Source: Eledone cirrhosa
Lineage: Eukaryota
Direction: 5' to 3'
DNA: 64,000 bases
NCBI GenBank assembly: GCA_964016885.1
Contig: OZ024741.1
Span: forward strand, 309,008,001 to 309,072,000
Shown here: one piece after another, positions 8,639 through 50,558 of the stretch
How positions within the stretch are numbered: the first letter of the stretch is position 1
Layout of the letters: each line of letters opens with the position of its first letter
Notes under the pieces: generated by a model
Told to the model about the DNA's origin: nothing
What the model saw: only the letters and a program-made list of their open reading frames with translations
The model's database searches: none
Made by a program: the position numbers and the translations under genes

Positions 8639-8642
<4 letters not shown>

Positions 8643-8830
8643 AAAAGCGTCAGGACCCCGACGGCTGAGGTCCAGTCGTTTCGACAGTTAGATCCGAACC
8701 GTTCGGATCTAGCTATCGAAACAGCCGGAGCTCAGCCGTCAGGGTCCTGATTCTTTTCCTATTACGCACTCTACTACCCTAAGTATCGAGTACTCTGGTG
8801 CGTTATGGTCCACCTGATTCCTTACCACAC
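8639..8830 (+). mobile_element. Family A asymmetric fold-back element (3' half of HHR)
   Basis: Palindrome 8639-8762 centred at 8700, tail 8763-8830, inside (TA)n. Arms carry cGAAAcggc..gagctc..gccGTC. Confidence 0.8.
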
Positions 8831-8840
8831 TTTTTTTGTT

Positions 8841-8878
<38 letters not shown>

Positions 8879-12184: not shown

Positions 12185-12488
12185 AAGGTTAACTTTGCCT
12201 TTCATCCTTACGGGGTCGATCAAATAAAGTACCAGTAATGCATTGGGATAAATGCTGGCCTTGTGCCAAAAGTAGAATCACTTATTATAAACGCACGGAT
12301 TGGCAGTATCGGTAGAGGGTCGGACGCCATGCATTGCAGCATAGAGTTACAGCCCTTTATGGTCTGAGTTCAAATCCCACCGAAGTTAACTTTGCCTTTC
12401 ATGCTTGCGGGGTAGATAAAATAAAATACCAGTAATACACTGGGGTAATTGCTGGGCCTTGTTCGAAAAGTAGAAACAATTATTATAA
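12185..12488 (+). mobile_element. Two tandem SINE copies
   Basis: A box tggcagtatcggtaga, B box gagttcaaatcc, family body, (ATT)n tail. Confidence 0.85.
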
Positions 12489-12577
12489 ACGCACAAACAC
12501 AGACACACTTACAAAAACACATACTCACAGACATACATTCACACAAATACACATACATTTACACAAACACACACATA

Positions 12578-15826: not shown

Positions 15827-15830
<4 letters not shown>

Positions 15831-15887
15831 AAAAAGTATGACCCCGACGGCAGAGCTCAAGCCGTTTCGACGGCTATTTCTGGACTT
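15827..15887 (-). mobile_element. Family A single arm
   Basis: ggaaaaagtatgaccccgacggcagagctcaagccgtttcgacggcta directly after (TA)n. Confidence 0.75.
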
Positions 15888-16091
15888 TACTTTTATGACG
15901 TAATTGTCTGTGTGTACAAAGTGTTTTTTTTTTGTTTGTTACATTTATAGTTAAATTTGTACAGGTGTATGGACGTGCATGCGCAAGTATGTTTATGTGT
16001 GCGTATGTTTATTTAGGCGTATATGTGTATGTGCATGTTGGAATCTTGGCCTATCTATCTATCTACCTATCTATCTACCTACTTATCTATC

Positions 16092-16941: not shown

Positions 16942-16943
<2 letters not shown>

Positions 16944-17126
16944 CGAAGGAAATGTGGTAAGGAACCAAGTGGACCATAACGCACCAAAGTACTCAATACT
17001 TAGGGTAGTAGAGTGGGTAATAGGAACGAATAGGACCCCGACGGCTGAGCTCAAGCCGTTTCGACGGCTAATTCTGGAATTAGCCGTCGAAACGGCTTGA
17101 GCTCAGCCGTCGGGGTCCTACTCGTT

Positions 17127-17130
<4 letters not shown>
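16942..17130 (-). mobile_element. Family A asymmetric fold-back element
   Basis: Near-perfect 110-bp palindrome at 17021-17130 plus tail 16942-17020, (TA)n on both sides. Confidence 0.85.
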
Positions 17131-17160
<30 letters not shown>

Positions 17161-17873
17161 TGTGTGTATATGTGCATACATATGTACACACATACACACA
17201 CACACACACATATATATACATATATGGGGAGGGTATTTCTATCTCTATATATATATAGATGTGTATATATATGTGTACACACATATATATATATATATCT
17301 TTAGATGTGTATGTGTATGTCTATATGTATGTATGTAATATAATGTAACTTTCACACACTACTTTCTTGTACCTGCTTTCTTGTTCTCTCCTTATCAAAA
17401 CTTTCCTGACGAAGGACTTCTGTCCTCCACTCTCTCAAGCGTGAACCTCATATCACTTTGTATTTTTGCATTCCTGAGTTTGTTTTGTTTCACACACACA
17501 CACACATATATATATATTCAAAATTATAAAAAAAGTCAAATATATGAAATTATTATTTATTCTTTCATTTTCTACGCACGTTTCAATAATATCACATTCA
17601 TTTACAGAACAACTGGAAATTATCGATTAACATTTATGTACATCATATGTGTTACCTACTAACCGTATAACGATGTTTCACTATACAGAAATGGCCATAT
17701 TCGAGATAAATTCACCACCAAGACAAATTCTATGAAAATCTTAAAACTGAACATTAAAGAAAATGAATTTTAAACAATAATTTACAATGCTCTGTGTACT
17801 AAGAAAAATAAGTTATTCAATTTTACTTTTCGAACTAGATTAGGAAAAAACGTTAATTATCTCTCTCTATATA

Positions 17874-17931
<58 letters not shown>

Positions 17932-17943
17932 TTCTCTCTCTCT

Positions 17944-18870
17944 CACAGCCCTCTGGCAGGCGGACCCGGCGATCAGTGGAGACTCCACTTCGTCATTCTA
18001 TAGAGGGTTGGTCCGCAGCAAGTGCGACGACGCGCTCGGTGAAACTCTAGGCGTGGAGGAAGATGAACTGGCCAGTCTGTTCGGTAGGACCTTCCGCCCG
18101 GGACCGATGGACAACTTCCAAAAGTCCCTGGCCTGGCAGTGCTACCGAGGAGCTCTACCAGTTCGAGACAAGCTCTACAGACATGGGCGCCCGGGCAGGG
18201 ACCCTGCAAAAAAGATCTGTCCGAGGTGCGTGCGAGACGAAGAAACCGTCGCGCACGCATTCATACACTGCCCGGGCGTCACTGACCTGTGGGGATATGT
18301 AGAACGACTATTGTCGCGGGTGGGACCAATCCAGTTGACCACCGAGTCCATTGTCATGATCAAACCGCCACCCTCCTTCAAAAACGAAGGAGAGGCGGTT
18401 TTCCTTTGTGTGATAGCTATGGCGAAAGAGGTTGTATGGTGGACAAGGTTGAAAGGGCTGAGGTCAGACACCTTTCTCTCCGGCCAACAACTGATTCTTT
18501 TTTTCAAATACCACTTTGGAAGAAGAATCAGGATGGAGAGAGAGGTGCTGTACCGCAGCAAGTTTTATGAAAGGTGGGTGAAAGTGGCGAGAATGGCCCG
18601 AGTGAATGGGCCTTCTCTCTATATCAGCCTGTAGATTGAGGAAAAGGAGGAGGAGAGGAAAGGAGTACAAGCTCTTCGTACTCCTGGAGATGAGGGTTGC
18701 ACATTTTTTCGGGGGTATGTGTTACCCATATAAACTGTCTCCCTCTATTGGGGAAAATCGACTAACTTTTAAATTCCATCTGTGATAACATTTTACACGT
18801 TTTTATTGTATGTAAACTTCCCCCTTTGTATTTGTCCCCTTCTTTTGTGCCCCTGTGGCTAATAAAGAAA
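17944..18870 (+). mobile_element. 5'-truncated Tx1/L1-type LINE, 3' end
   Basis: ORF 18008-18634 has the zf-RVT-like motif W..YRGALPVRDKL..CPRC...ETVAHAFIHC. 3'UTR ends in AATAAA. Inserted between (TCTA)n/(TC)n tracts. Confidence 0.9.
18008..18634 (+). pseudogene. LINE ORF2 C-terminal zinc-binding (zf-RVT-like) fragment
   Basis: 208-aa non-repetitive ORF with a CCHC motif, lacks RT and endonuclease domains. Confidence 0.8.
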
Positions 18871-19749: not shown

Positions 19750-19752
<3 letters not shown>

Positions 19753-20008
19753 TATGTATACGTACATACATATATGTATACAGACGTACAGTAGTATGTA
19801 TATATATACATACATGCACACATATATATATGTACGTATGGATTCACTGAACATTTATTATAATGCTCGGTGTGTTTGTAAACAAACATCCCGTATTAAG
19901 CCGTAGTGTCTAGCAACCATCGTTGCTCGTTTGTTCAACACTGACAAAGGAACGCTGTACCTGTTTCAAGCCTATTAGCTATCGTCAGCAACGTATACCT
20001 TCCTGCCA
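19750..20008 (-). mobile_element. Family C element, truncated copy
   Basis: Reverse complement of ~23072-23330, includes the HHR. Confidence 0.8.
19952..19994 (-). ncRNA. Type I hammerhead ribozyme, family C
   Basis: Reverse complement: acgttg-CTGACGA-t-agct aata ggct-t-GAAA-cagg-TA-cagcgt. Confidence 0.8.
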
Positions 20009-20034
20009 CACACACACACACATATATATATATA

Positions 20035-20185
20035 AATGGCTTCTACAGGACTAGAACAGTTTCATTCCTATGAAATCATCAGGAAGGCCGGGTGACATAG
20101 TAAGTCAATATCAAATATTGATGTTAACACTCAACTGATGTATTTGGGACCTTATTTACTGTGATTACCCCCGATTTAACTCGGG

Positions 20186-20190
<5 letters not shown>
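20035..20190. mobile_element. Family B element with most of the right arm missing
   Basis: Minus-strand HHR arm followed by a diverged plus-strand family B tail (acactcaactgatgtatttggg...ctcgggat). Confidence 0.7.
20038..20087 (-). ncRNA. Type I hammerhead ribozyme, family B
   Basis: Reverse complement: cttc-CTGATGA-t-ttc atag gaa-t-GAAA-ctg ttctagtc ctg-TA-gaag. One mismatch in stem III. Confidence 0.75.
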
Positions 20191-21809: not shown

Positions 21810-22185
21810 TGTGATACATATTTCAATGACGACAATGGCCTCACTTCTCGGTGTACCCAGTGCCGTGACATCATCAGACAGTTTCTTACATAATAAGGTT
21901 ATGTTCCCGAGGTAATCCAAATTGAATCGCCTGCGCAAACTGGTGGGGGTGAATTGGGGCTCACAAGGGAACGGACGAAGGATTCAAGAAAACCTGCTTC
22001 GTCCGTTCCCTTGTCGATTCAATTTGGATTACATCGGGAACATAACCTTATTATGTAAGAAGCTGTCTGATGATGTCACGGAACTGGGTATACCGAAGAG
22101 TGTGGTCACTGTCGTCATTGAAATATGTATCACAGCATTATCATTAAATGACTTTAACATCTGTAACTACGTTGCATTTTCTTAT

Positions 22186-22217: not shown

Positions 22218-22280
22218 GGAAAAGAGTCAGGACCCCGACGGCTAAGCTCCGGCCGTTTCGACGGCTAGATCCGAACTAAG
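22216..22280 (-). mobile_element. Family A single arm
   Basis: ggaaaagagtcaggaccccgacggctaagctccggccgtttcgacggctagatccgaac after (TA)n. Confidence 0.75.
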
Positions 22281-22310: not shown

Positions 22311-22615
22311 TTGAAAATTGCGTGGAATCCTTGGTAGAGTTAGGTGTATTTAAAAAAAGGTAAAGAATGACTTCACTTGTAGTTCTAAACAATTTAATTT
22401 AATTTTATAATATTATGATTTTACAATTTAGTTTCGTAGTTCTAGTAAGTTCTTTGTAGATCTCCCCACCGAAGTTAACAAAGAACTTACTAGATCTACA
22501 AAACCAAATTGTAAAATCATATTATAAGATTAAATTAAATTGTTTAGAACTACAAGTGAAGTTATTCTTTTCATTTTTTTAAATATGACTAACTATACAA
22601 GGATTTCACACATTT

Positions 22616-22620
<5 letters not shown>
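22311..22620. repeat. Diverged ~145-bp-arm inverted repeat abutting (TA)n
   Basis: cttcacttgtagttctaaacaatttaattt / aaattaaattgtttagaactacaagtgaag, ~20-nt spacer. Confidence 0.8.
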
Positions 22621-22936: not shown

Positions 22937-23385
22937 GAGTGGGAAATGAAATTTCATTTCATTTTTTCCGTTTATCGTTTTCGGTGCACCCGGCCGATTA
23001 ACCCACTCAATATGTAAATTGGGCTACTCAGCCGTTAATATGCATAAGGTAAGTATATACGTTCAACAATCTGGCAGGGAGGTATCTGTTGCTGACGATA
23101 GCTAATAAGCTTGAAACTAGTACAGCGTTCCTTTGTCAGTGTTGAACAAACGAGCAACGATGGTTGCTAGACACTACGGCTTAATACGGGATTTTTGTTT
23201 ACAAACACACCGAGCATTATAATAAATGTTCTGTGAATCCATACGTACATATATATATGTGTGCATGTATGTATATATACATACTACTGTACGTCTGTAT
23301 ACATATATGTATGTACGTGTACATACTTATATTTAAGTAACAGCCGTACTAAGAGTGGGAAATGAAATTTCGTTTCAGTTTTTCC

Positions 23386-23390
<5 letters not shown>
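22937..23390 (+). mobile_element. Retrozyme/PLE-pLTR-like element, family C: 416-bp monomer plus 38-bp terminal direct repeat
   Basis: gagtgggaaatgaaatttc...ttccgttta at both 22937-22974 and 23353-23390. Internal HHR. Flanked by (TA)n on both sides. Confidence 0.8.
23087..23127 (+). ncRNA. Type I hammerhead ribozyme, family C (retrozyme-like monomer)
   Basis: tgttg-CTGACGA(23092-98)-t-agct aata agct-t-GAAA(23113-16)-ctag-TA-cagcg. Stem I tgttg/cagcg, stem II 4 bp, minimal stem III with palindromic CTAG, GUA cleavage triplet. Stem I extends via gttcaaca/tgttgaac. Confidence 0.85.
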
Positions 23391-23442
<52 letters not shown>

Positions 23443-23629: not shown

Positions 23630-23681
<52 letters not shown>

Positions 23682-23801
23682 GGAGGTGAGTTTTGTAGTA
23701 CAATAAAGCAATGCAGATATCGGATAAGAAGCACTCTACAGTTTGTAGGACTGGAGTATACATAATATATAAGATCAAAAGATGGTTAAAAGAGTTCCAT
23801 G

Positions 23802-23872
23802 TATTTTATTATGCGCATTTCAAAAACAAATATCATCATGCAATAACATTTTTGTTTTCATCAGATAAAATA
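23802..23872 (-). ncRNA. Type I hammerhead ribozyme, family F (mirror copy)
   Basis: Inverted copy of 24549-24617 with 8-bp stem I tattttat/ataaaata and intact core. Confidence 0.82.
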
Positions 23873-24548
23873 GGAAGACATGATATGAAGGTTATAAAAC
23901 ACTTGTGAATAGTGCAGTTTTAAATCAACATATGAAAAGTAGTTTTAGATTGATGTGTGATATTGGGAAAAAAATTTTGAGGGGGTGGGGGGAGGATGAA
24001 AAAGAGGAGGAGATGAGAGTAAAAAGTGGAGGGGGAGGAGTATAATGAGGAAGGATGAGATAGGAGGAGAGATGGGTGATAGAGAGAGAGAGATAGCTTT
24101 TATAACTGAGAAAAATATATTGTTTTACATAGAGAGGTTGAAAAACCGTTGGAAGATAATATATAAATTAAAAGAATTTAAAAATTAACGAAGAGAAAAA
24201 TAACTTAACATTATTTTTCTCTTCGTTAATTTTCAAATTCTTTTAATTTATATATTATCTTCCAACGGTTTTTCAACCTCTCTATGTAAAACAATATATT
24301 TTTCTCAGTTATAAAAGCTATCTCTCTCTCTCTATCACCCATCTCTCCTCCTATCTCATCCTTCCTCATTATACTCCTCCCCTTCCACTTTTTACTCTCA
24401 TCTCCTCCTCTTTTTCATCCTTTCCAACCTCCCGCCCCCTCAAATTTTTTTCCCCAATATCACACATCAATCTAAAACTACTTTTCATATGTTGATTTAA
24501 AACTGCACTATTCACAAGTGTTTTTTAACCTTCATATCATGTCTTCCG

Positions 24549-24617
24549 ATTTTATCTGATGAAAACACAAATGTTATTGCATGATGATATTTGTTTTTGA
24601 AATGCGCATAATAAAAT
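24549..24617 (+). ncRNA. Type I hammerhead ribozyme, family F (long stem II)
   Basis: attttat-CTGATGA(24556-62)-~15-bp stem II-GAAA(24599-602)-T GCGC A-TA-ataaaat. 7-bp stem I, palindromic GCGC tetraloop, AUA triplet. Confidence 0.85.
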
Positions 24618-24670
24618 ACATGGAACTCTTTTAACCATCTTTTGATCTTATATATATATATATATATATA

Positions 24671-24762
24671 AGAAAATGTTCAAGACCCCGACGGCAGAGC
24701 TCATGCCGTTTCGACGGTTATTTCTGGACGTTATGGTCAACCTGGTTACCACACTTCCTTCG

Positions 24763-24765
<3 letters not shown>
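24671..24765. mobile_element. Family A element with central deletion
   Basis: Left arm fused directly to the tail end gttatggtcaacctggttaccacacttccttcgtt. Confidence 0.75.
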
Positions 24766-25540: not shown

Positions 25541-25564
25541 CATTATTATTATTAATTGCTGACC

Positions 25565-26320
25565 GAGGGGGCTGGATTGGCAGAATCGGTAGAGCGTCGG
25601 AAACCATACTTTGCAGCATAGAGTTACGGCCCTTTACTGTCTGAGTTCAAATCCTGCCGAGGTTAACTTTGTCTTTCATCCTTACAGAGTCGATAAAATA
25701 AAGTACCAGTCACGCGCTGCGGTTGATTTAATCGACTTTCCCCTTCCCCCTCCAAATTGCTGGCCTTGTGCCTATATCAGAAACCATTATTAATTGCTGG
25801 CCGCGAGTCGTGGATTGACAGAATCGGTAGAGCGCCGGAAATCATGCTTTACAGCATAGTATTACATTCCTTTACGGTCTGAGTTTAAATCCTGCGGAGG
25901 TGAACTTTGTCTTTAATCCTCACGGGGGTTAATAAAATAAGGCACCCGTCACGCACTGGTGTCGATGTAATCAACTTTCCTCTCCTACCCAAATTGCTGG
26001 CCTTGTGCCTATGGTAGAAACCATTATTAATTGCTGGCCTTGAGCCTATGGTAGAAACCATTATTAATTGCTGGCCGTGTGCCGAATGTAGAAGCAATTA
26101 TTATTACGGATTGGTAGTATCGAGCATCAGACAACATGATTTGCAGCAAATAGTAACATCCCATTGCGTTCTGGGTTCTATTCCAGCCTAGATTAATTTT
26201 CCCTTTCATCCTTCCACTGACTATAAAATAAAGTACCAGTTATGTATTGGGGTTGATGGAATCGTCGTTTTCATCGCCACCAAAACTACCGACCATGTGC
26301 AAAAATTAGAAACCATAATT
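25565..26320 (+). mobile_element. Head-to-tail array of about 3 SINEs with duplicated tails
   Basis: tggcagaatcggtagagcg..gagttcaaatcc..aaattgctggccttgtgcc..agaaaccattattaa repeated. Confidence 0.88.
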
Positions 26321-37604: not shown

Positions 37605-38240
37605 TCAGGTCACCAGTTGGTGCTACTGGTAACATGTATCCCAGTACAACCTGTCTCATGGTCGGGTCGTTGGCGACTAAACTGGCAACCCCACCAAGGT
37701 TTCTTGGTGAGGAGGGTGACTTTGGACATCCTGCAGGACTAAAAACAAAACATGTCAAAGGGCAAAGGAGCTCTTAAGAGTCAATGGCCATCCAAAATCA
37801 CCGGGAGAGATGACCCCTTTAGCCTTAGTCAAGGCAGAATTCTAGGAGAAGGAAAACTCTGATATAACACCTGCAACCCTGATGGTATCCAATGATGTTG
37901 ACTTGTTCTTCTTTTTGGTAAATAGCATCTTGGTTAAGAGAGTGGGACTGGCTTTGTGCAGTGCCTTTGCTCACTATAAAAGCTTCACGGCACAGGCATT
38001 GCTTTATATCTGGAGATCTCTCTGCACTTGTCCTCACATGGGCCCAGCACTATGTGTCAATAATTGTCCTACCATGGGCCTAGCACTATGTGTCAATAAT
38101 TGTCACAGGTGTAGTGTTTGTACCAGAGGTTTCAAGTCGCTGGCTGGACTAAAAAGTCACACTCGTTCAGCGCTTCGGTAGGGGTTATCCTACATGGATG
38201 TAAAGTAGTGGCCGTACTCGAAAACGAGTTGGCAGCCACC
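37605..38240 (+). mobile_element. RTE-derived non-autonomous element, copy 1
   Basis: ~620 bp, (TATG)n on both sides, ggagaaggaaaactctga 5'UTR motif, 3' CSVCTRGFKSLAGLKSH C2H2 remnant. Confidence 0.75.
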
Positions 38241-39231: not shown

Positions 39232-39835
39232 TCAGGTCACCACTTGGTGCTACTGGTAACATGTATCCCAGTACAACCTGTCTCATGGTCGGGTCGTTGG
39301 CGACTAAACTGGCAACCCCACCAAGGTTTCTTGGTGAGGAGGGTGACTTTGGACATCCTGCAGGACTAAAAACAAAACCTGTCAAAGGGCAAAGGAGCTC
39401 TTAAGAGTCAATGGCCATCCAAAATCACCGGGAGAGATGACCCCTTAGCCTTTGTCAAGGCAGAATTCTAAGAGAAGGAAAACTCTGATATAACACCTGC
39501 AACCCTGATGGTATCCAATGATGTTGACTTGTTCTTCTTTTTGGTAAATATCATCTTGGTTAAGAGAGTGGGACTGGCTTTGTGCAGTGCCTTTGCTCAC
39601 TATAAAAGCATCACGGCACAGGCATTGCTTTATATCTGGAGATCTCTCTGCACTTGTCGTCACATGGTACCATGGGCCCAGCACTGTGCCAATAATTGTC
39701 ACAAGTGTAGTGTTTGTACCAGAGTTTCAAGTCGCTGGCTGGACTAAAAAGTCACACTCGTTCAGCGCATCGGTATGGGTTCTCCTACATGGATATAAAG
39801 TAGTGGCCGTACTCGAAAACGAGTTGGCAGCCACC
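39232..39835 (+). mobile_element. RTE-derived non-autonomous element, copy 2
   Basis: Near-identical to 37605-38240, (TATG)n flanks. Confidence 0.75.
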
Positions 39836-40149: not shown

Positions 40150-40330
40150 CGAGGAAACAATGTTTCCATTGACCTTTCCAGTTGCTAATACTATCTATCG
40201 GTCGCAATTACAGGTAGAAGGAGCAACATGAAATAAAGAGTCTTCCCCAAGGACATAACGCATCGCCAGGTTCGGGAAATCGAACTCACAACCTCACGAT
40301 TGCGAATCCAATTCTTTAACCACTCAGCCA
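40150..40330 (-). mobile_element. Second tRNA-derived SINE family (CORE/V-SINE-like)
   Basis: Minus strand tggctgagtggttaaag..gagttcgattt..tgtccttggggaagac; older relatives at ~7290-7555 and ~43975-44150. Confidence 0.65.
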
Positions 40331-40465
40331 TTAACGTGTATTTGGGCACAGAAGTGACTAGAAGAAGGAAATAAAGAAAGGCTATGTACAAGACAAGTTT
40401 ACACACCACATCTCCACCATCAAATCTTTCTGCTGGTATGATGTGTGTGTGATAAAACAAAGATG

Positions 40466-40513
<48 letters not shown>

Positions 40514-40693
40514 CATCTTTGTTTTATCACACACACATCATACCAGCAGAAAGATTTGATGGTGGAGATGTGGTGTGTAGACTTATCTTGTACATAGCTT
40601 TTCTTTATTTCCTTCTTCTAGTCACTTCTGTGCCCAAATACACGTTAATGGGTGTATTATATTTATTTTACTTCGATATTATTTATATATATG

Positions 40694-41518: not shown

Positions 41519-41527
41519 TATACATGT

Positions 41528-41716
41528 TTATCCCGGGTTGAATCAGGGGTGACCACAGTAAGTAAGTTACTCAATACATAGCAGAGTATAGATATTTAAT
41601 ATAGACGTGGCTTCTACAGGACTAGAACTGTTTCATTCGGGAGAAATCATCAGGAAGCCTGATTTCTACCGAATGAAACAGTTCTAGTCCTGTAGATGCT
41701 ATTTCTATATTAAATA
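41528..41716 (-). mobile_element. Family B asymmetric fold-back HHR element
   Basis: Arms ~41595-41650 / 41660-41716 plus a ~65-nt unpaired tail at 41528-41594, in a TA-rich tract. Confidence 0.8.
41609..41659 (-). ncRNA. Type I hammerhead ribozyme, family B
   Basis: Reverse complement: ggcttc-CTGATGA-t-ttc tccc gaa-t-GAAA-cag ttctagtc ctg-TA-gaagcc. 6-bp stem I, 3-bp stem II, 4-bp stem III, GUA triplet. Confidence 0.88.
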
Positions 41717-46127: not shown

Positions 46128-46730
46128 CCATGAGACAGGTTGTACTGGTAACATGTATTCCAGTACAACCTGTCTCATGGTCGGGTCGTTGGCGACTAAA
46201 CTGGCAACCCCACCAAGGTTTCTTGGTGAGGAGGGTGACTTTGGACATCCTGCAGGACTAAAAACAAAACCTGTCAAAGGGCAAAGGAGCTCTTAAGAGT
46301 CAATGGCCATCCAAAATCACCGGGAGAGATGACCCCTTAGGCTTTGTCAAGGCAGAATACTAGGAGAAGGAAAACTCTGATATAACACCTACAACCCTGA
46401 TGGTATCCAATGATGTTGACTTGTTCTTCTTTTTGGTAAATATCATCTTGGTTAAGAGAGTGGGACTGGCTTTGTGCAGTGCCTTTGCTCACTATAAAAG
46501 CTTCACGGCACAGGCATTGCTTTATATCTGGAGATCTCTCTGCACTTGTCGTCACATGGTACCATGGGCCCAGCACTATGTGTCAATAATTGTCACAAGT
46601 GTAGTGTTTGTACCAGAGCTTTCAAGTTGCTGGCTGGACTAAAAAGTCACACTCGTTCAGCACATCGGTATGGGTTCTCCTACATTGATATAAAGTAATG
46701 GCCGTACTCGAAAATGAGTTGGCAGCCACC
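46128..46730 (+). mobile_element. RTE-derived non-autonomous element, copy 3
   Basis: Near-identical to copies 1 and 2; 5' end replaced by a 21-bp inverted duplication. Confidence 0.75.
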
Positions 46731-47201: not shown

Positions 47202-47230
<29 letters not shown>

Positions 47231-47232
<2 letters not shown>

Positions 47233-47974
47233 GTAAGTATGTATGTATGTATATGTACATACATATATGTATACAGACGTACAGTAGTATGTATATATAT
47301 ATACATACATGCACACACATATATATGCACGTATCGGTTTACCGATAATAAATGTTCGTTAAACCGATACGTGCATATATATATATATGTGTGCATGTAT
47401 GTATATATATACATACTACTGTACGTCTGTATACATATATGTATGTACGTATACATACATACTTACATTTAAGTAAGTGCCGTACTAAGAGTGAGAAATT
47501 AAATTTCGTTTCATTCTATTCAATTTATCGTTTTCGGTGTGCCCGGCCGACTGAACTCACTCGATATGCAAATTAGGCTGCTCAGCCGTTAATATGCATA
47601 AGGAAAGTATATACTTTCAGACGTTCAACCATTTGGCAGGAAGGTATACGATGCTGACGATAGATAATAAGCTTGAAACTAGTACATCGTTCCTGTGTCA
47701 GTGTTGAACAAAAAGGTGACGTGGTTGCCTAAACACTGTACGGCGTAATTCAGGCTGTTTGTTTGTTTATTAACAAACAAACCGAGCATTATAATAAATG
47801 TTCGGTAAACCGATACGTGCATATATATATGTGTGCATGTATGTATATATATACATACTACTGTACGTCTGTATACATATATGTATGTACGTATACATAC
47901 ATACATACTTACATTTAAGTAAGTGCCGTACTAAGAGTGAGAAATGAAATTTCGTTTCATTCTATTCCATTTAT
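47231..47974 (+). mobile_element. Family C element: 5' inverted arm plus ~1.4 tandem 446-bp units
   Basis: 47345-47528 is repeated at 47791-47974. 47231-47345 is the reverse complement of ~47356-47468. HHR inside, (TA)n flanks. Confidence 0.8.
47648..47690 (+). ncRNA. Type I hammerhead ribozyme, family C
   Basis: acgatg-CTGACGA-tagataataagctt-GAAA-ctag-TA-catcgt. Perfect 6-bp stem I, one mismatch in stem II. Confidence 0.8.
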
Positions 47975-48002
47975 ATATATATATATATATAAAATATAGA
48001 AG

Positions 48003-48053
48003 AGCATCTACATGACTAGAACTGTTTCATTCGTGAGGAATCATCAGGAAGCT
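48003..48053 (-). ncRNA. Type I hammerhead ribozyme, family B (left arm of palindrome)
   Basis: Reverse complement: agcttc-CTGATGA-ttcctcacgaat-GAAA-cagttctagtcatg-TA-gatgct. Core intact, a few stem mismatches. Confidence 0.7.
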
Positions 48054-48099
48054 TCCCGATGATTTCTCACGAATGAAACAGTTCTAGTCCTGTAGAAGC
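48051..48099 (+). ncRNA. Type I hammerhead ribozyme, family B (right arm, U4C core variant)
   Basis: gcttc-CCGATGA-t-ttc tcac gaa-t-GAAA-cag ttctagtc ctg-TA-gaagc. Confidence 0.7.
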
Positions 48100-48173
48100 C
48101 CTTCTATATTAAAACATTTACACTCTGCTATGTATTGAGTACCTTACTTACTCCGACTCAACCCGGAATAACT

Positions 48174-48241
<68 letters not shown>

Positions 48242-48407
48242 TTTGTGTGTGCATGTCTGTGTGTGTGTGCGTATGTGTACAGATACAGACACAGACATAT
48301 ATATATTTACAATGTTGATTATATTGATGGAGTTGGAGACTGTTACATACGCCCCCTTTAATTTTGAACAGGAATCATCAGAAAGCATTTGACCTATGTA
48401 TACATAG

Positions 48408-49705
48408 GTTGACACCATTGACATAGCTTCGCTCCAGTGACATAGGTTGACACCAGTGACATAGTTTGGCTCCAGTGAAATAGCTTGGCTCCATTGACAT
48501 AGCTTAGCTCCAGTGACATAGGTTGACACCAGTGAGATAGTTTGGCTCCAGTGACATAGCATGGTTCCAGTGACATAGCCTGGCTCCAGTGACATAGTTT
48601 GGCTCCAGTGATATAGTTTGGCACCAGTGACATAGCTTGGTTCCAGTGACATAGCTCGTCTCCAGTGACATAATTTGGTACCAGTGACATAGTTTGGCTC
48701 CAGTGACATAGTTTGGCTCCAGTGACATAGTTTAGCTCCAATGACATAAGTTGGCTCCAGTGACATAGCATGGGTCCGGTGACATAGTTTGGCTCCAGTG
48801 ACATAGTTTGGCTCCAATGACATAATTTGGCTCTAGTGACATAGTTTGGCTCCAGTGACGTAGTTTGGCACCAATGACATAATTTGGTTTCAGTGACATA
48901 GTTAGGCTCCAGAGACATAGCATCGTTCCAGTCACATAGTTTGGTACCAGTGACATAAGTTGGTACCAGTGACATAGCTTGGCTCCAGTGAAATAGCATG
49001 GCTCAAGTGACATAGTTTGGCTCCAGTGACATATGTTGACACCAGTGACATAGTTTGGCACCAGTGACATAGTTTGGTACCAGTGACATAGTTTGGCTCC
49101 AGTAACATAGCATGGCTCCAGTGACATAGTTTGGCTCCAGTGACAGGTTGACTCCAGTGACATAGTTTGGTACCAGTGACAGGTTGACTCCAGTGACATA
49201 GTTTGGTACCAGTGACAGGTTGACTCCAGTGACATAGTTTGGTACCAGTGACATAGTTTGACTCCAGTGACATAGCTTGGCTCCAGTGACATAGGTTGAC
49301 ACCAGTGACATAGTTTGGCTCCAGTGACATAGCATGGTTCCAGTGGCATAGCTCGGCTTCAGTGACATAGTTTGGCTCCAGTGACATAGTTTGGCTCCAG
49401 TAACATAGCTTGGCTCCAGTGACATAGTTTGGCTCCCGTGAAATAGTTTGGCTCCAGTGACATAGTTTGGCTCCCGTGAAATAGTTTGGCTCCCGTGAAA
49501 TAGTTTGGCTCCAGTGACATAAGTTGGTACCAGTGACAGCATGGGTCCGGTGACATAGATTGGATCTAGTGCCATGAATCGGAACCAGTGACATAGTTTG
49601 ATTCCAGTGACATAGGTTGTTTCCAGTGACATAGTTTGGCTCCAGTGATATAGGTTGGCTCCAGTGACACGGATTGGCACCAGTGACATGGATTGTAACC
49701 AGTGA
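48408..49705. repeat. 20-bp minisatellite (CCAGTGACATAGTTTGGCTC-like), about 65 units
   Basis: Direct tandem units with a constant CCAGTGACA and a variable second half. Confidence 0.95.
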
Positions 49706-50558
49706 ACTGTTGGAATATGAAAGTATTTTGCTCAATGACACAACGTGTCACCAGGTCACGAACTGAACACACCAGTCACTAAGCCACGCGCCTTCGCTGG
49801 AACGTAAAATATCTACCGAAATAAATGAGTCCGACGCACTACCGATTCTTAAAGTAATTCCCTTAATAATAATGAATTTTTCATTCGCCATAAAAACGAA
49901 AGACGTTTTGGGGTTGGTTGGAACATAAGGATAAAAAACAACAAACAGTAAGACATAAAGTGAAGGGGAAATCAACCAAAGAAAACCGTAGATATAACAA
50001 TGACAAAAATGATAAATGTTCACAATACACCACTACAACCACCAACACCCTACTACTGCTACTACTACTACTATAATCACCACCACCACCACCGCCACCG
50101 CCACCACCACCACCACCGCAACCACAACCACTACAACCACTACCACTAACTCCATGACCACTTCCTCCACCACCACCACCACCACCATTAACTCCACGAC
50201 CACTTCCATCACCACCACCACAACCACCACCACTTCCACCATCACCACTTCCACCACCACCACCACCACCACCACCACTTCCACTTCCACCACCACCACC
50301 ACCACCCCTACCAGCAGCAGCAGCACCACCACCACCAGCACCACCACTAACTCCAGCACCACTTCGATCACAACGACCACCACAACTTCCACCCCACCAC
50401 TACGACCACCATCTCACCCACCAATAACTCCACCATCACAACCACAAGCAACAACAACAACGGCAACAATAATATTAATAATAAAATTTATAAGAAGGAG
50501 AAAACTAAAAATAAATAACTCTGATAAAGCATAATAATGATAATAAAAATAATAAAAA

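Follow-up and report, generated by a model that had tools for sequence, protein, structure and literature searches.

A non-coding unit with a hammerhead motif and PLE-like insertion anatomy in Eledone cirrhosa

Introduction

What kind of element leaves behind, in a single insertion, more than one turn of a short non-coding unit together with an inverted arm that stops short of the unit's 3' end, and how is such an arm made? The question is raised by an insertion at positions 47231–47974 of a 64,000-nucleotide stretch of Eledone cirrhosa DNA (assembly GCA_964016885.1, contig OZ024741.1, positions 309,008,001 to 309,072,000 of the forward strand). This stretch, which is microsatellite-rich and of eukaryotic type, is referred to as the window, and all positions below are counted within it.

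The structure is textbook for Penelope-like elements (PLEs), and both the anatomy and the link between circular and tandem forms are already in print. PLE insertions have been described as partial tandems that are truncated on the 5' side and form a pseudo-LTR (pLTR); in many of them a further 5'-truncated copy, in inverted orientation, sits at the 5' end. They carry a tail of 30–40 bp, often at one end only, as well as hammerheads in the pLTRs, and their bias towards microsatellite or (TA)n targets hides target duplications (PMC8557442). Two direct pLTRs plus one inverted, shorter pLTR are also found around non-PLE cargo moved in trans (PMC3846280), and a curation guide lists the anatomy as routine (PMC8969392). 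Non-autonomous PLEs with pLTRs are known as well (PMC8557442).

Small non-coding hammerhead repeats are described as non-LTR retrozymes and have been proposed to be mobilised by PLEs (PMC7229834; bioRxiv 10.64898/2026.07.22.740005). To date, this link consists of shared ribozymes, co-occurrence and pLTR similarity (same sources). For the inverted pLTR, an origin by self-priming has been proposed (PMC3846280), and the later steps of PLE integration have been called unvalidated (PMC11167929).

Results

Anatomy of the insertion

Repeats were compared by all-against-all BLAST with masking, 36% of the window being masked as short tandem repeat. The stretch 47345–47528 recurs at 47791–47974 with 94.1% identity over 188 columns (E 8e-80, masked BLAST) and a period of 446. 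The direct part of the insertion, 47345–47974, spans 630 bp, or 1.41 turns of a 446-bp unit. It opens with a 5'-truncated, partial upstream turn (47345–47528, plus strand), which forms a pseudo-LTR-like direct repeat. This is followed by the single-copy middle of the unit (47529–47790, plus strand), 262 bp of non-coding DNA with a ribozyme motif inside, and then by the 3' terminal repeat delimited by BLAST, which is the end of the last turn (47791–47974, plus strand).

Upstream lies an inverted 5' arm (47231–47345, minus strand), equivalent to an inverted pLTR without its tail. It is the reverse complement of 47802–47914, with 96.5% identity over 115 (E 2e-49, BLAST), and falls 60 nt short of the 3' end at 47974. 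Arm and direct part overlap by 1 nt at their junction, and a 10-nt loop separates the head-to-head arms. The preliminary description had reported both a direct repeat making 1.4 turns of a 446-bp unit and an inverted arm of about 115 bp stopping some 60 nt before the 3' end, and these measurements proved to be right. The arm is mostly AT/CATA low-complexity sequence; its unique stretches nonetheless align in register.

The 60-nt tail (47915–47974, plus strand), delimited by anchoring of copies, is found at this end of the insertion only. At 47906–47925 (plus strand), folding predicts a small stem-loop with an AC-rich 5' side, and the short end, 47914, falls in its loop. The stem-loop is predicted in both the 47-kb copy and the copy at 23 kb, with weak z scores of -2.0 and -1.3 for the segments folded. 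(AT)n borders the insertion on both sides: by sequence, a left (TA)n target tract occupies 47202–47230 and a right (AT)n target tract 47975–47992. No target-site duplication is discernible at these flanks, and since the insertion grades into (AT)n, its ends can be placed only to within a few bases.

The unit has no credible open reading frame; only short, mostly low-complexity frames are present. Unit lengths in the family are 446 and 416 bp, with a GC content of 37%. Folded as a circle, the unit gives a z score of -6.1 against 60 shuffles; this is largely AT/CATA self-pairing and so carries little weight.

Copies of the family and their two 3' ends

The family to which the insertion belongs, family C, is sampled here by three insertions, all from the 64-kb window. 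BLAST with the single-copy part as query found exactly two further copies there, at 22937–23391 and 19752–20008. The first of these (plus strand) comprises 1.09 turns of a 416-bp unit with a long, tailed 3' end and is without an inverted arm. It is ~81% identical to the 47-kb copy, conserves the single-copy middle 47529–47790 and independently crosses the unit junction. It passes into (AT)n at the base equivalent to 47974 and has a different start, inside the tail of the previous turn. The other copy (19752–20008, minus strand) belongs to the subfamily of the 23-kb copy (95.7% identity); it is 5'-truncated and has a short, tail-less 3' end. When compared within its own subfamily, this end lies 0–4 nt from the outer end of the arm. 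The two claims made earlier for these copies, namely a 3' end common to the 23- and 47-kb copies with differing starts and an endpoint of the 19.75-kb copy near that of the arm, were thereby borne out.

Overall, partial tandems with 5' truncation (1.41 and 1.09 turns) make up two of the three copies, the 5' ends differ in all three, and the head-to-head inverted arm is present in one. Every family C 3' end (4/4) adjoins (AT)n. The family therefore has two fixed 3' ends, 60 nt apart, together with variable 5' ends.

Three unrelated families have the same anatomy: 47993–48110 with 41599–41710; 23772–24648; and 8641–8759 with 17023–17128. Anchoring the four families gave 19 rows, 18 of which end in (AT)n, seven at the long site and 11 at the short site; the nineteenth is the internal turn of the 47-kb insertion. 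The preliminary description had suggested mapping the ends of the copies in the expectation of fixed positions. Within the window, such a map does place 18 of 19 rows at fixed positions, of which there are two kinds, long and short. All six of the two-armed insertions that were anchored, drawn from ten palindromes inspected, have one long and one short end; for the remaining four palindromes (21.9, 22.4, 40.5 and 46.1 kb) the two-end rule was not demonstrated. Five of the 11 short ends lie outside these six pairs; among the five, the one at 24.7 kb may stem from a two-armed copy that has suffered a deletion. The tail, 60 nt in family C, measures roughly 70, 80 and 90 nt in the three other families.

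Several features of these neighbours were seen in passing. A second hammerhead family comprises the head-to-head palindromes 47993–48179 and 41522–41710, centred just 5' of the ribozyme core and each with a ~70-nt tail on one arm, and a solo tail-less copy at 20030–20190. At 48 kb and again at 20 kb it adjoins family C, a proximity that is probably due to common (AT)n targeting. The element at 23680–24648 is an 877-bp palindrome (96%) with a tail of ~90 nt on the left only; each arm contains a type I hammerhead (24556–24610, plus strand; 23864–23810, minus strand) with a long helix II and a palindromic helix III. A further palindrome family (8641–8842, 16943–17128, 15829–15890, 22218–22276 and 24672–24765) has a ~80-nt tail on one side, five tail-less ends at one boundary and GC-rich hairpins in its arms. 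A relaxed core search over seven repeat regions outside family C, in which the U3-A8 variant was allowed, found no hammerhead core in this family and returned one imperfect match, at 21.9 kb.

Possible signals at the ends were also noted. In three families the short end falls at ATT (47912–47915, 48108–48110 and 8760–8763), a motif preferred by the Anolis PLE endonuclease, which may be mere microhomology with the (AT)n target. By eye, a ~15-nt motif is common to the family C tail (47916–47940) and the 3' end of an unrelated 630-bp family (46695–46712, 38205–38222 and 39800–39817), and an ACTC...GAGT hairpin is common to the tails of the other families. These tail motifs are possible enzyme-binding signals.

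The hammerhead motif

The single-copy middle contains a type I hammerhead-like motif (47638–47694, plus strand), recognised by a relaxed descriptor and without an Rfam match. Its core, CUGACGA / GAAA / UA, lies at 47654–47684, and the ribozyme is predicted to cut after 47684. Helix I has a 6-nt bulge. Helix II consists of 4 bp with a U-U at its base, as described in the axolotl retrozyme ribozyme HHR_Amex2 (PMC7229834), and has one C-to-A mismatch in the 47-kb copy. Helix III is a palindromic 6-mer that pairs well only between two molecules (duplex energy -4.8 kcal/mol); weak palindromic helices III are known from dimeric metazoan PLE ribozymes (PMC4209133). All three family C copies have the core (47654–47684, plus; 23092–23122, plus; 19988–19958, minus), with one motif per insertion, and in each of them the predicted cut site is read through.

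A first, stricter descriptor missed family C, and the relaxed version, in which U-U is allowed in helix II, was written after the motif had been seen. It returns seven matches in the window, which stem from only three families and include the three family C copies; 200 block shuffles gave 0.03 on average and never more than 1. The bare core is less distinctive: its count of 11 is equalled by block shuffles (mean 3.9, maximum 11), and in a second test 12 cores were counted against a maximum of 5 in whole-window shuffles. Across the three sequences the proposed structure comprises 48 cells, and 47 of them pair. One two-sided change occurs in helix I (A-U / U-G); with n=3 sequences this level was reached in 175 of 500 shuffles, so that the covariation is not significant.

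At the gathering score no Rfam model of any kind matched the window, and even with E values of up to 10 allowed, none of the hammerhead models did. When the isolated motif was folded freely, the hammerhead fold was not recovered and the result was no better than for shuffles, and the hammerhead fold differs from the minimum-energy fold. The motif is absent from the preliminary description, and it is what identifies the element.

Identity of the element

The anatomy, the two fixed 3' ends and the variability of the 5' ends, the flanking AT repeats and the hammerhead motif can all be read directly from the DNA. Since a PLE-like anatomy is combined here with a small, non-coding hammerhead unit, a PLE-dependent, non-autonomous reading is preferred: the insertion is likely a non-coding, non-autonomous retroelement of the non-LTR retrozyme type, mobilised by a PLE. 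The fullest account, in which the hammerhead unit is copied in trans into (AT)n by a PLE reverse transcriptase (RT) / GIY-YIG endonuclease, is considered likely. Points that weigh against it include the failure to find an autonomous partner among the open frames of the window, the negative Rfam scans, the single ribozyme per insertion, tails longer than those described for PLEs and the absence of a hammerhead from one of the four families with this anatomy (8.7 and 17 kb). Non-LTR retrozymes are defined by a non-coding unit of 150–450 bp, low GC and a type I hammerhead, and both the length and the GC content of the family C units fall within this definition. Active retrozymes are described as having at least two consecutive units, each with a hammerhead (bioRxiv 10.64898/2026.07.22.740005); the insertions here have a single motif each. 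For this reason the 47-kb element is said to descend probably from a retrozyme rather than to be one, and it probably works like one.

Other identities were considered and set aside. An autonomous PLE is rejected: the element has no RT/GIY-YIG reading frame, and no PLE protein occurs among the frames of the window, where none of the 93 open frames of at least 70 aa matched a PLE RT or GIY-YIG family in Pfam. The sole Pfam match above cut-off among the 93 was zf-RVT at 17774. The 286-aa frame in question (17774–18631; E 6e-7 for the zf-RVT domain) probably represents the end of a LINE ORF2 rather than a PLE. The window contains no tRNA gene and no sign of a tRNA-headed SINE. A miRNA gene is likewise rejected, as Rfam E-value scans gave only sub-threshold matches of miRNA hairpins to the AT/CATA stretch.

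Other repeats in the window

Three 92–97% identical copies of a 630-bp repeat lie in (ATGT)n, at 37606–38240, 39233–39835 and 46128–46730; the 46-kb copy has a 21-bp inverted 5' arm grown from a native hairpin, and no hammerhead was found in the repeat. The commonest repeat of the window is represented by 25548–26320 and about ten dispersed copies (among them 2985, 12186–12490, 28090, 31675, 33325 and 42708). At 25.5 kb it forms a partial tandem with a period of ~238 bp; no hammerhead or tRNA gene was detected in this repeat. Further single-copy palindromes lie at 21810–22134, 22312–22619 and 40325–40654, the last of which has a central microsatellite and non-AT flanks and is more MITE-like. 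Finally, 48402–49706 is a minisatellite array with offsets that are mostly multiples of 19 bp.

Discussion

Template and priming

A linear monomer released by cleavage cannot have been the template, because the predicted ribozyme cut lies inside all three copies. What remains is a ligated RNA circle, which has been proposed as a PLE template (PMC4209133), or an uncleaved tandem transcript, which is dominant in vitro (PMC11167929); the chances of the two are about even. The preliminary description had joined circular and palindromic forms in one mechanism. Its link between tandem and palindrome stands, and a circle is allowed by the data, whereas an uncleaved tandem transcript fits them too.

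The proposed mechanism is as follows. A PLE enzyme would nick both strands of an AT-rich target. One nick would prime cDNA at the distal site, 47974, and this cDNA would run for 630 nt, beyond one full unit; the other nick would prime at the proximal site, 47914, and its cDNA would run for 115 nt. The two 5'-truncated cDNAs would then be joined head to head with a 1-nt overlap, and the tail would be the stretch between the two start sites. These steps have counterparts in vitro, where a purified PLE protein cuts and extends both target strands and prefers AT-rich DNA, and where PLE reverse transcription starts internally, at two sites in an AC-rich stem-loop, with the tail as the stretch between them (PMC11167929).

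The existence of two fixed ends favours two-site priming of both target strands over a simple fold-back. Given the identity of the element, two-site priming is modestly favoured, and fold-back combined with fixed cutting is credited with a probability well below even. In the preliminary description, the insertion was explained by a fixed priming site, variable run-on and a fold-back second arm. The fixed 3' start is upheld, except that there are two fixed ends 60 nt apart instead of one. Run-on of variable length is supported by the variable 5' ends; like the fixed start and the common mechanism for tandem and palindromic forms, it has already been described for PLEs (PMC8557442, PMC3846280, PMC11167929). 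The second arm is indeed head to head; a simple fold-back, however, does not on its own account for a fixed outer end, and a short end is also found in a solo copy (19.75 kb).

Alternative explanations

The strongest alternative keeps the same PLE enzyme and makes the arm by fold-back: the first cDNA would snap back and copy the turn just made, and the endonuclease would cut or stop the hairpin at a fixed tail boundary. Overall, this is rather unlikely. It accords with the arrangement of the arms around a 10-nt loop, and the near-perfect, tiny-loop palindromes of the other families are more easily made by self-priming than by joining truncated cDNAs. It also has published precedent, in that self-priming from such palindromes has been proposed (PMC3846280) and the tail has been attributed to endonuclease resolution of an intermediate (PMC8557442). 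Against it, only 1 nt could pair at the 47-kb junction, solo short-end copies exist (the five unpaired short ends, including the possibly deleted one), and two start sites have been demonstrated in vitro (PMC11167929).

The sequence of the arm itself bears on the choice between fold-back and two-site priming. Fold-back would copy the adjacent turn, but no derived change is common to the arm and that turn; at all three sites where the turns differ within the span of the arm, the arm matches the distal turn. Private changes number five in the adjacent turn, three in the arm and none in the distal turn (5 vs 0, two-sided p 0.0625). The pattern, taken from one insertion, is star-like, and the siding of the arm with the distal turn is suggestive only, as changes after insertion can explain all of these differences.

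A non-autonomous Helentron (HINE / DINE-1), which is a rolling-circle DNA element, is very improbable. HINEs have an inverted repeat near the 5' end with its partner 38–60 bp from the 3' end, a 3' palindrome, and internal microsatellite and tandem repeats (PMC4067079), so that the 60-nt offset of the inverted repeat, the tail hairpin and the internal low-complexity sequence are all reminiscent of that description. However, HINE subTIRs are 12–15 bp, fixed and family-defining, and their targets are TT (PMC4067079), while the arm here is 115 bp long and absent from the other two copies, the 5' ends vary, and the unit lies between (AT)n tracts and retains a hammerhead motif. These points largely refute the reading.

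Nor is an accident after insertion or during assembly much to be feared, whether a slippage duplication or inversion in AT-rich DNA or a read fold-back artefact; its probability is put slightly lower still. The high short tandem repeat content of the window and the largely low-complexity arm would suit such an event. Three private differences of the arm from both turns rule out a read artefact, the same pair of ends is seen again in copies that are diverged and unlinked, as well as in the three other families, and the 23-kb copy crosses the unit junction on its own. A MITE of a cut-and-paste DNA transposon with terminal inverted repeats at TA, suggested by inverted repeats near both ends and TA flanks, has a negligible probability, given that one repeat lies 60 nt internally, that the pair is missing from two of three copies and that the copies are 5'-truncated partial tandems.

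Significance

A non-coding hammerhead unit with the full insertion footprint of a PLE constitutes an independent line for the retrozyme–PLE link. A more general reading is put forward tentatively, at somewhat less than an even chance: retrozyme-type RNA circles of this genome may be copied by a PLE enzyme that always primes two strands at two start sites, leaving one long and one short end per insertion (6/6) and unusually long tails of 60–90 nt. If true, the movement of animal retrozymes by PLE machinery would be documented directly by structure, in addition to co-occurrence and phylogeny. Moreover, copies with three segments (arm, adjacent turn and distal turn) would be a natural record separating twin priming from fold-back. 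The main value of the 47-kb insertion is as test material for the formation of inverted ends: copies that are short, dense and longer than one unit permit a simple count that could decide the origin of the inverted arm.

Comparison with known systems

Literature searches judged by titles, the opening of abstracts and selected passages brought up no report of a tail and an inverted arm on a non-coding hammerhead unit, a weak negative, as supplements may hold similar examples; a search for papers on such elements in the octopus literature found none. The word "tail" does not occur in the preprint bioRxiv 10.64898/2026.07.22.740005.

Family C resembles PLEs in its partial tandem, inverted 5'-truncated copy, tail at one end, type I hammerhead, AT-repeat targets and lack of a visible target-site duplication (PMC8557442, PMC3846280, PMC4209133). 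It differs from them in having 262 bp of non-coding DNA between its direct repeats instead of an RT-EN reading frame, in the length of the tail (60 nt, and ~70–90 in the neighbouring families, vs 30–40) and in a hammerhead with helices I and II of canonical size, not the minimal form. With the metazoan non-LTR retrozymes of coral, mussel, axolotl and Xenopus it has in common a non-coding unit in the 150–450 bp range, low GC, one type I hammerhead per unit, a weak palindromic helix III and the U-U of HHR_Amex2. Unlike these, it occurs as dispersed insertions of 0.6–1.4 turns with one ribozyme each, not as dimers or arrays; an inverted arm and tail are unmentioned in the available descriptions of metazoan retrozymes.

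The non-autonomous PLEs Chlamys-N / MRC1 and the cargo carried in trans between the pLTRs of Adineta are similar in combining non-coding or foreign sequence with pLTRs, head-to-tail or inverted. Most Chlamys elements are without canonical hammerheads and target (C)n or (CA)n, whereas family C keeps its hammerhead and lies in (AT)n. [quoted passage not shown] In PAc the start sites are found inside the open reading frame, in its first 172 nt; in contrast, those of family C would lie 230 and 290 nt past the predicted ribozyme cut, in non-coding sequence.
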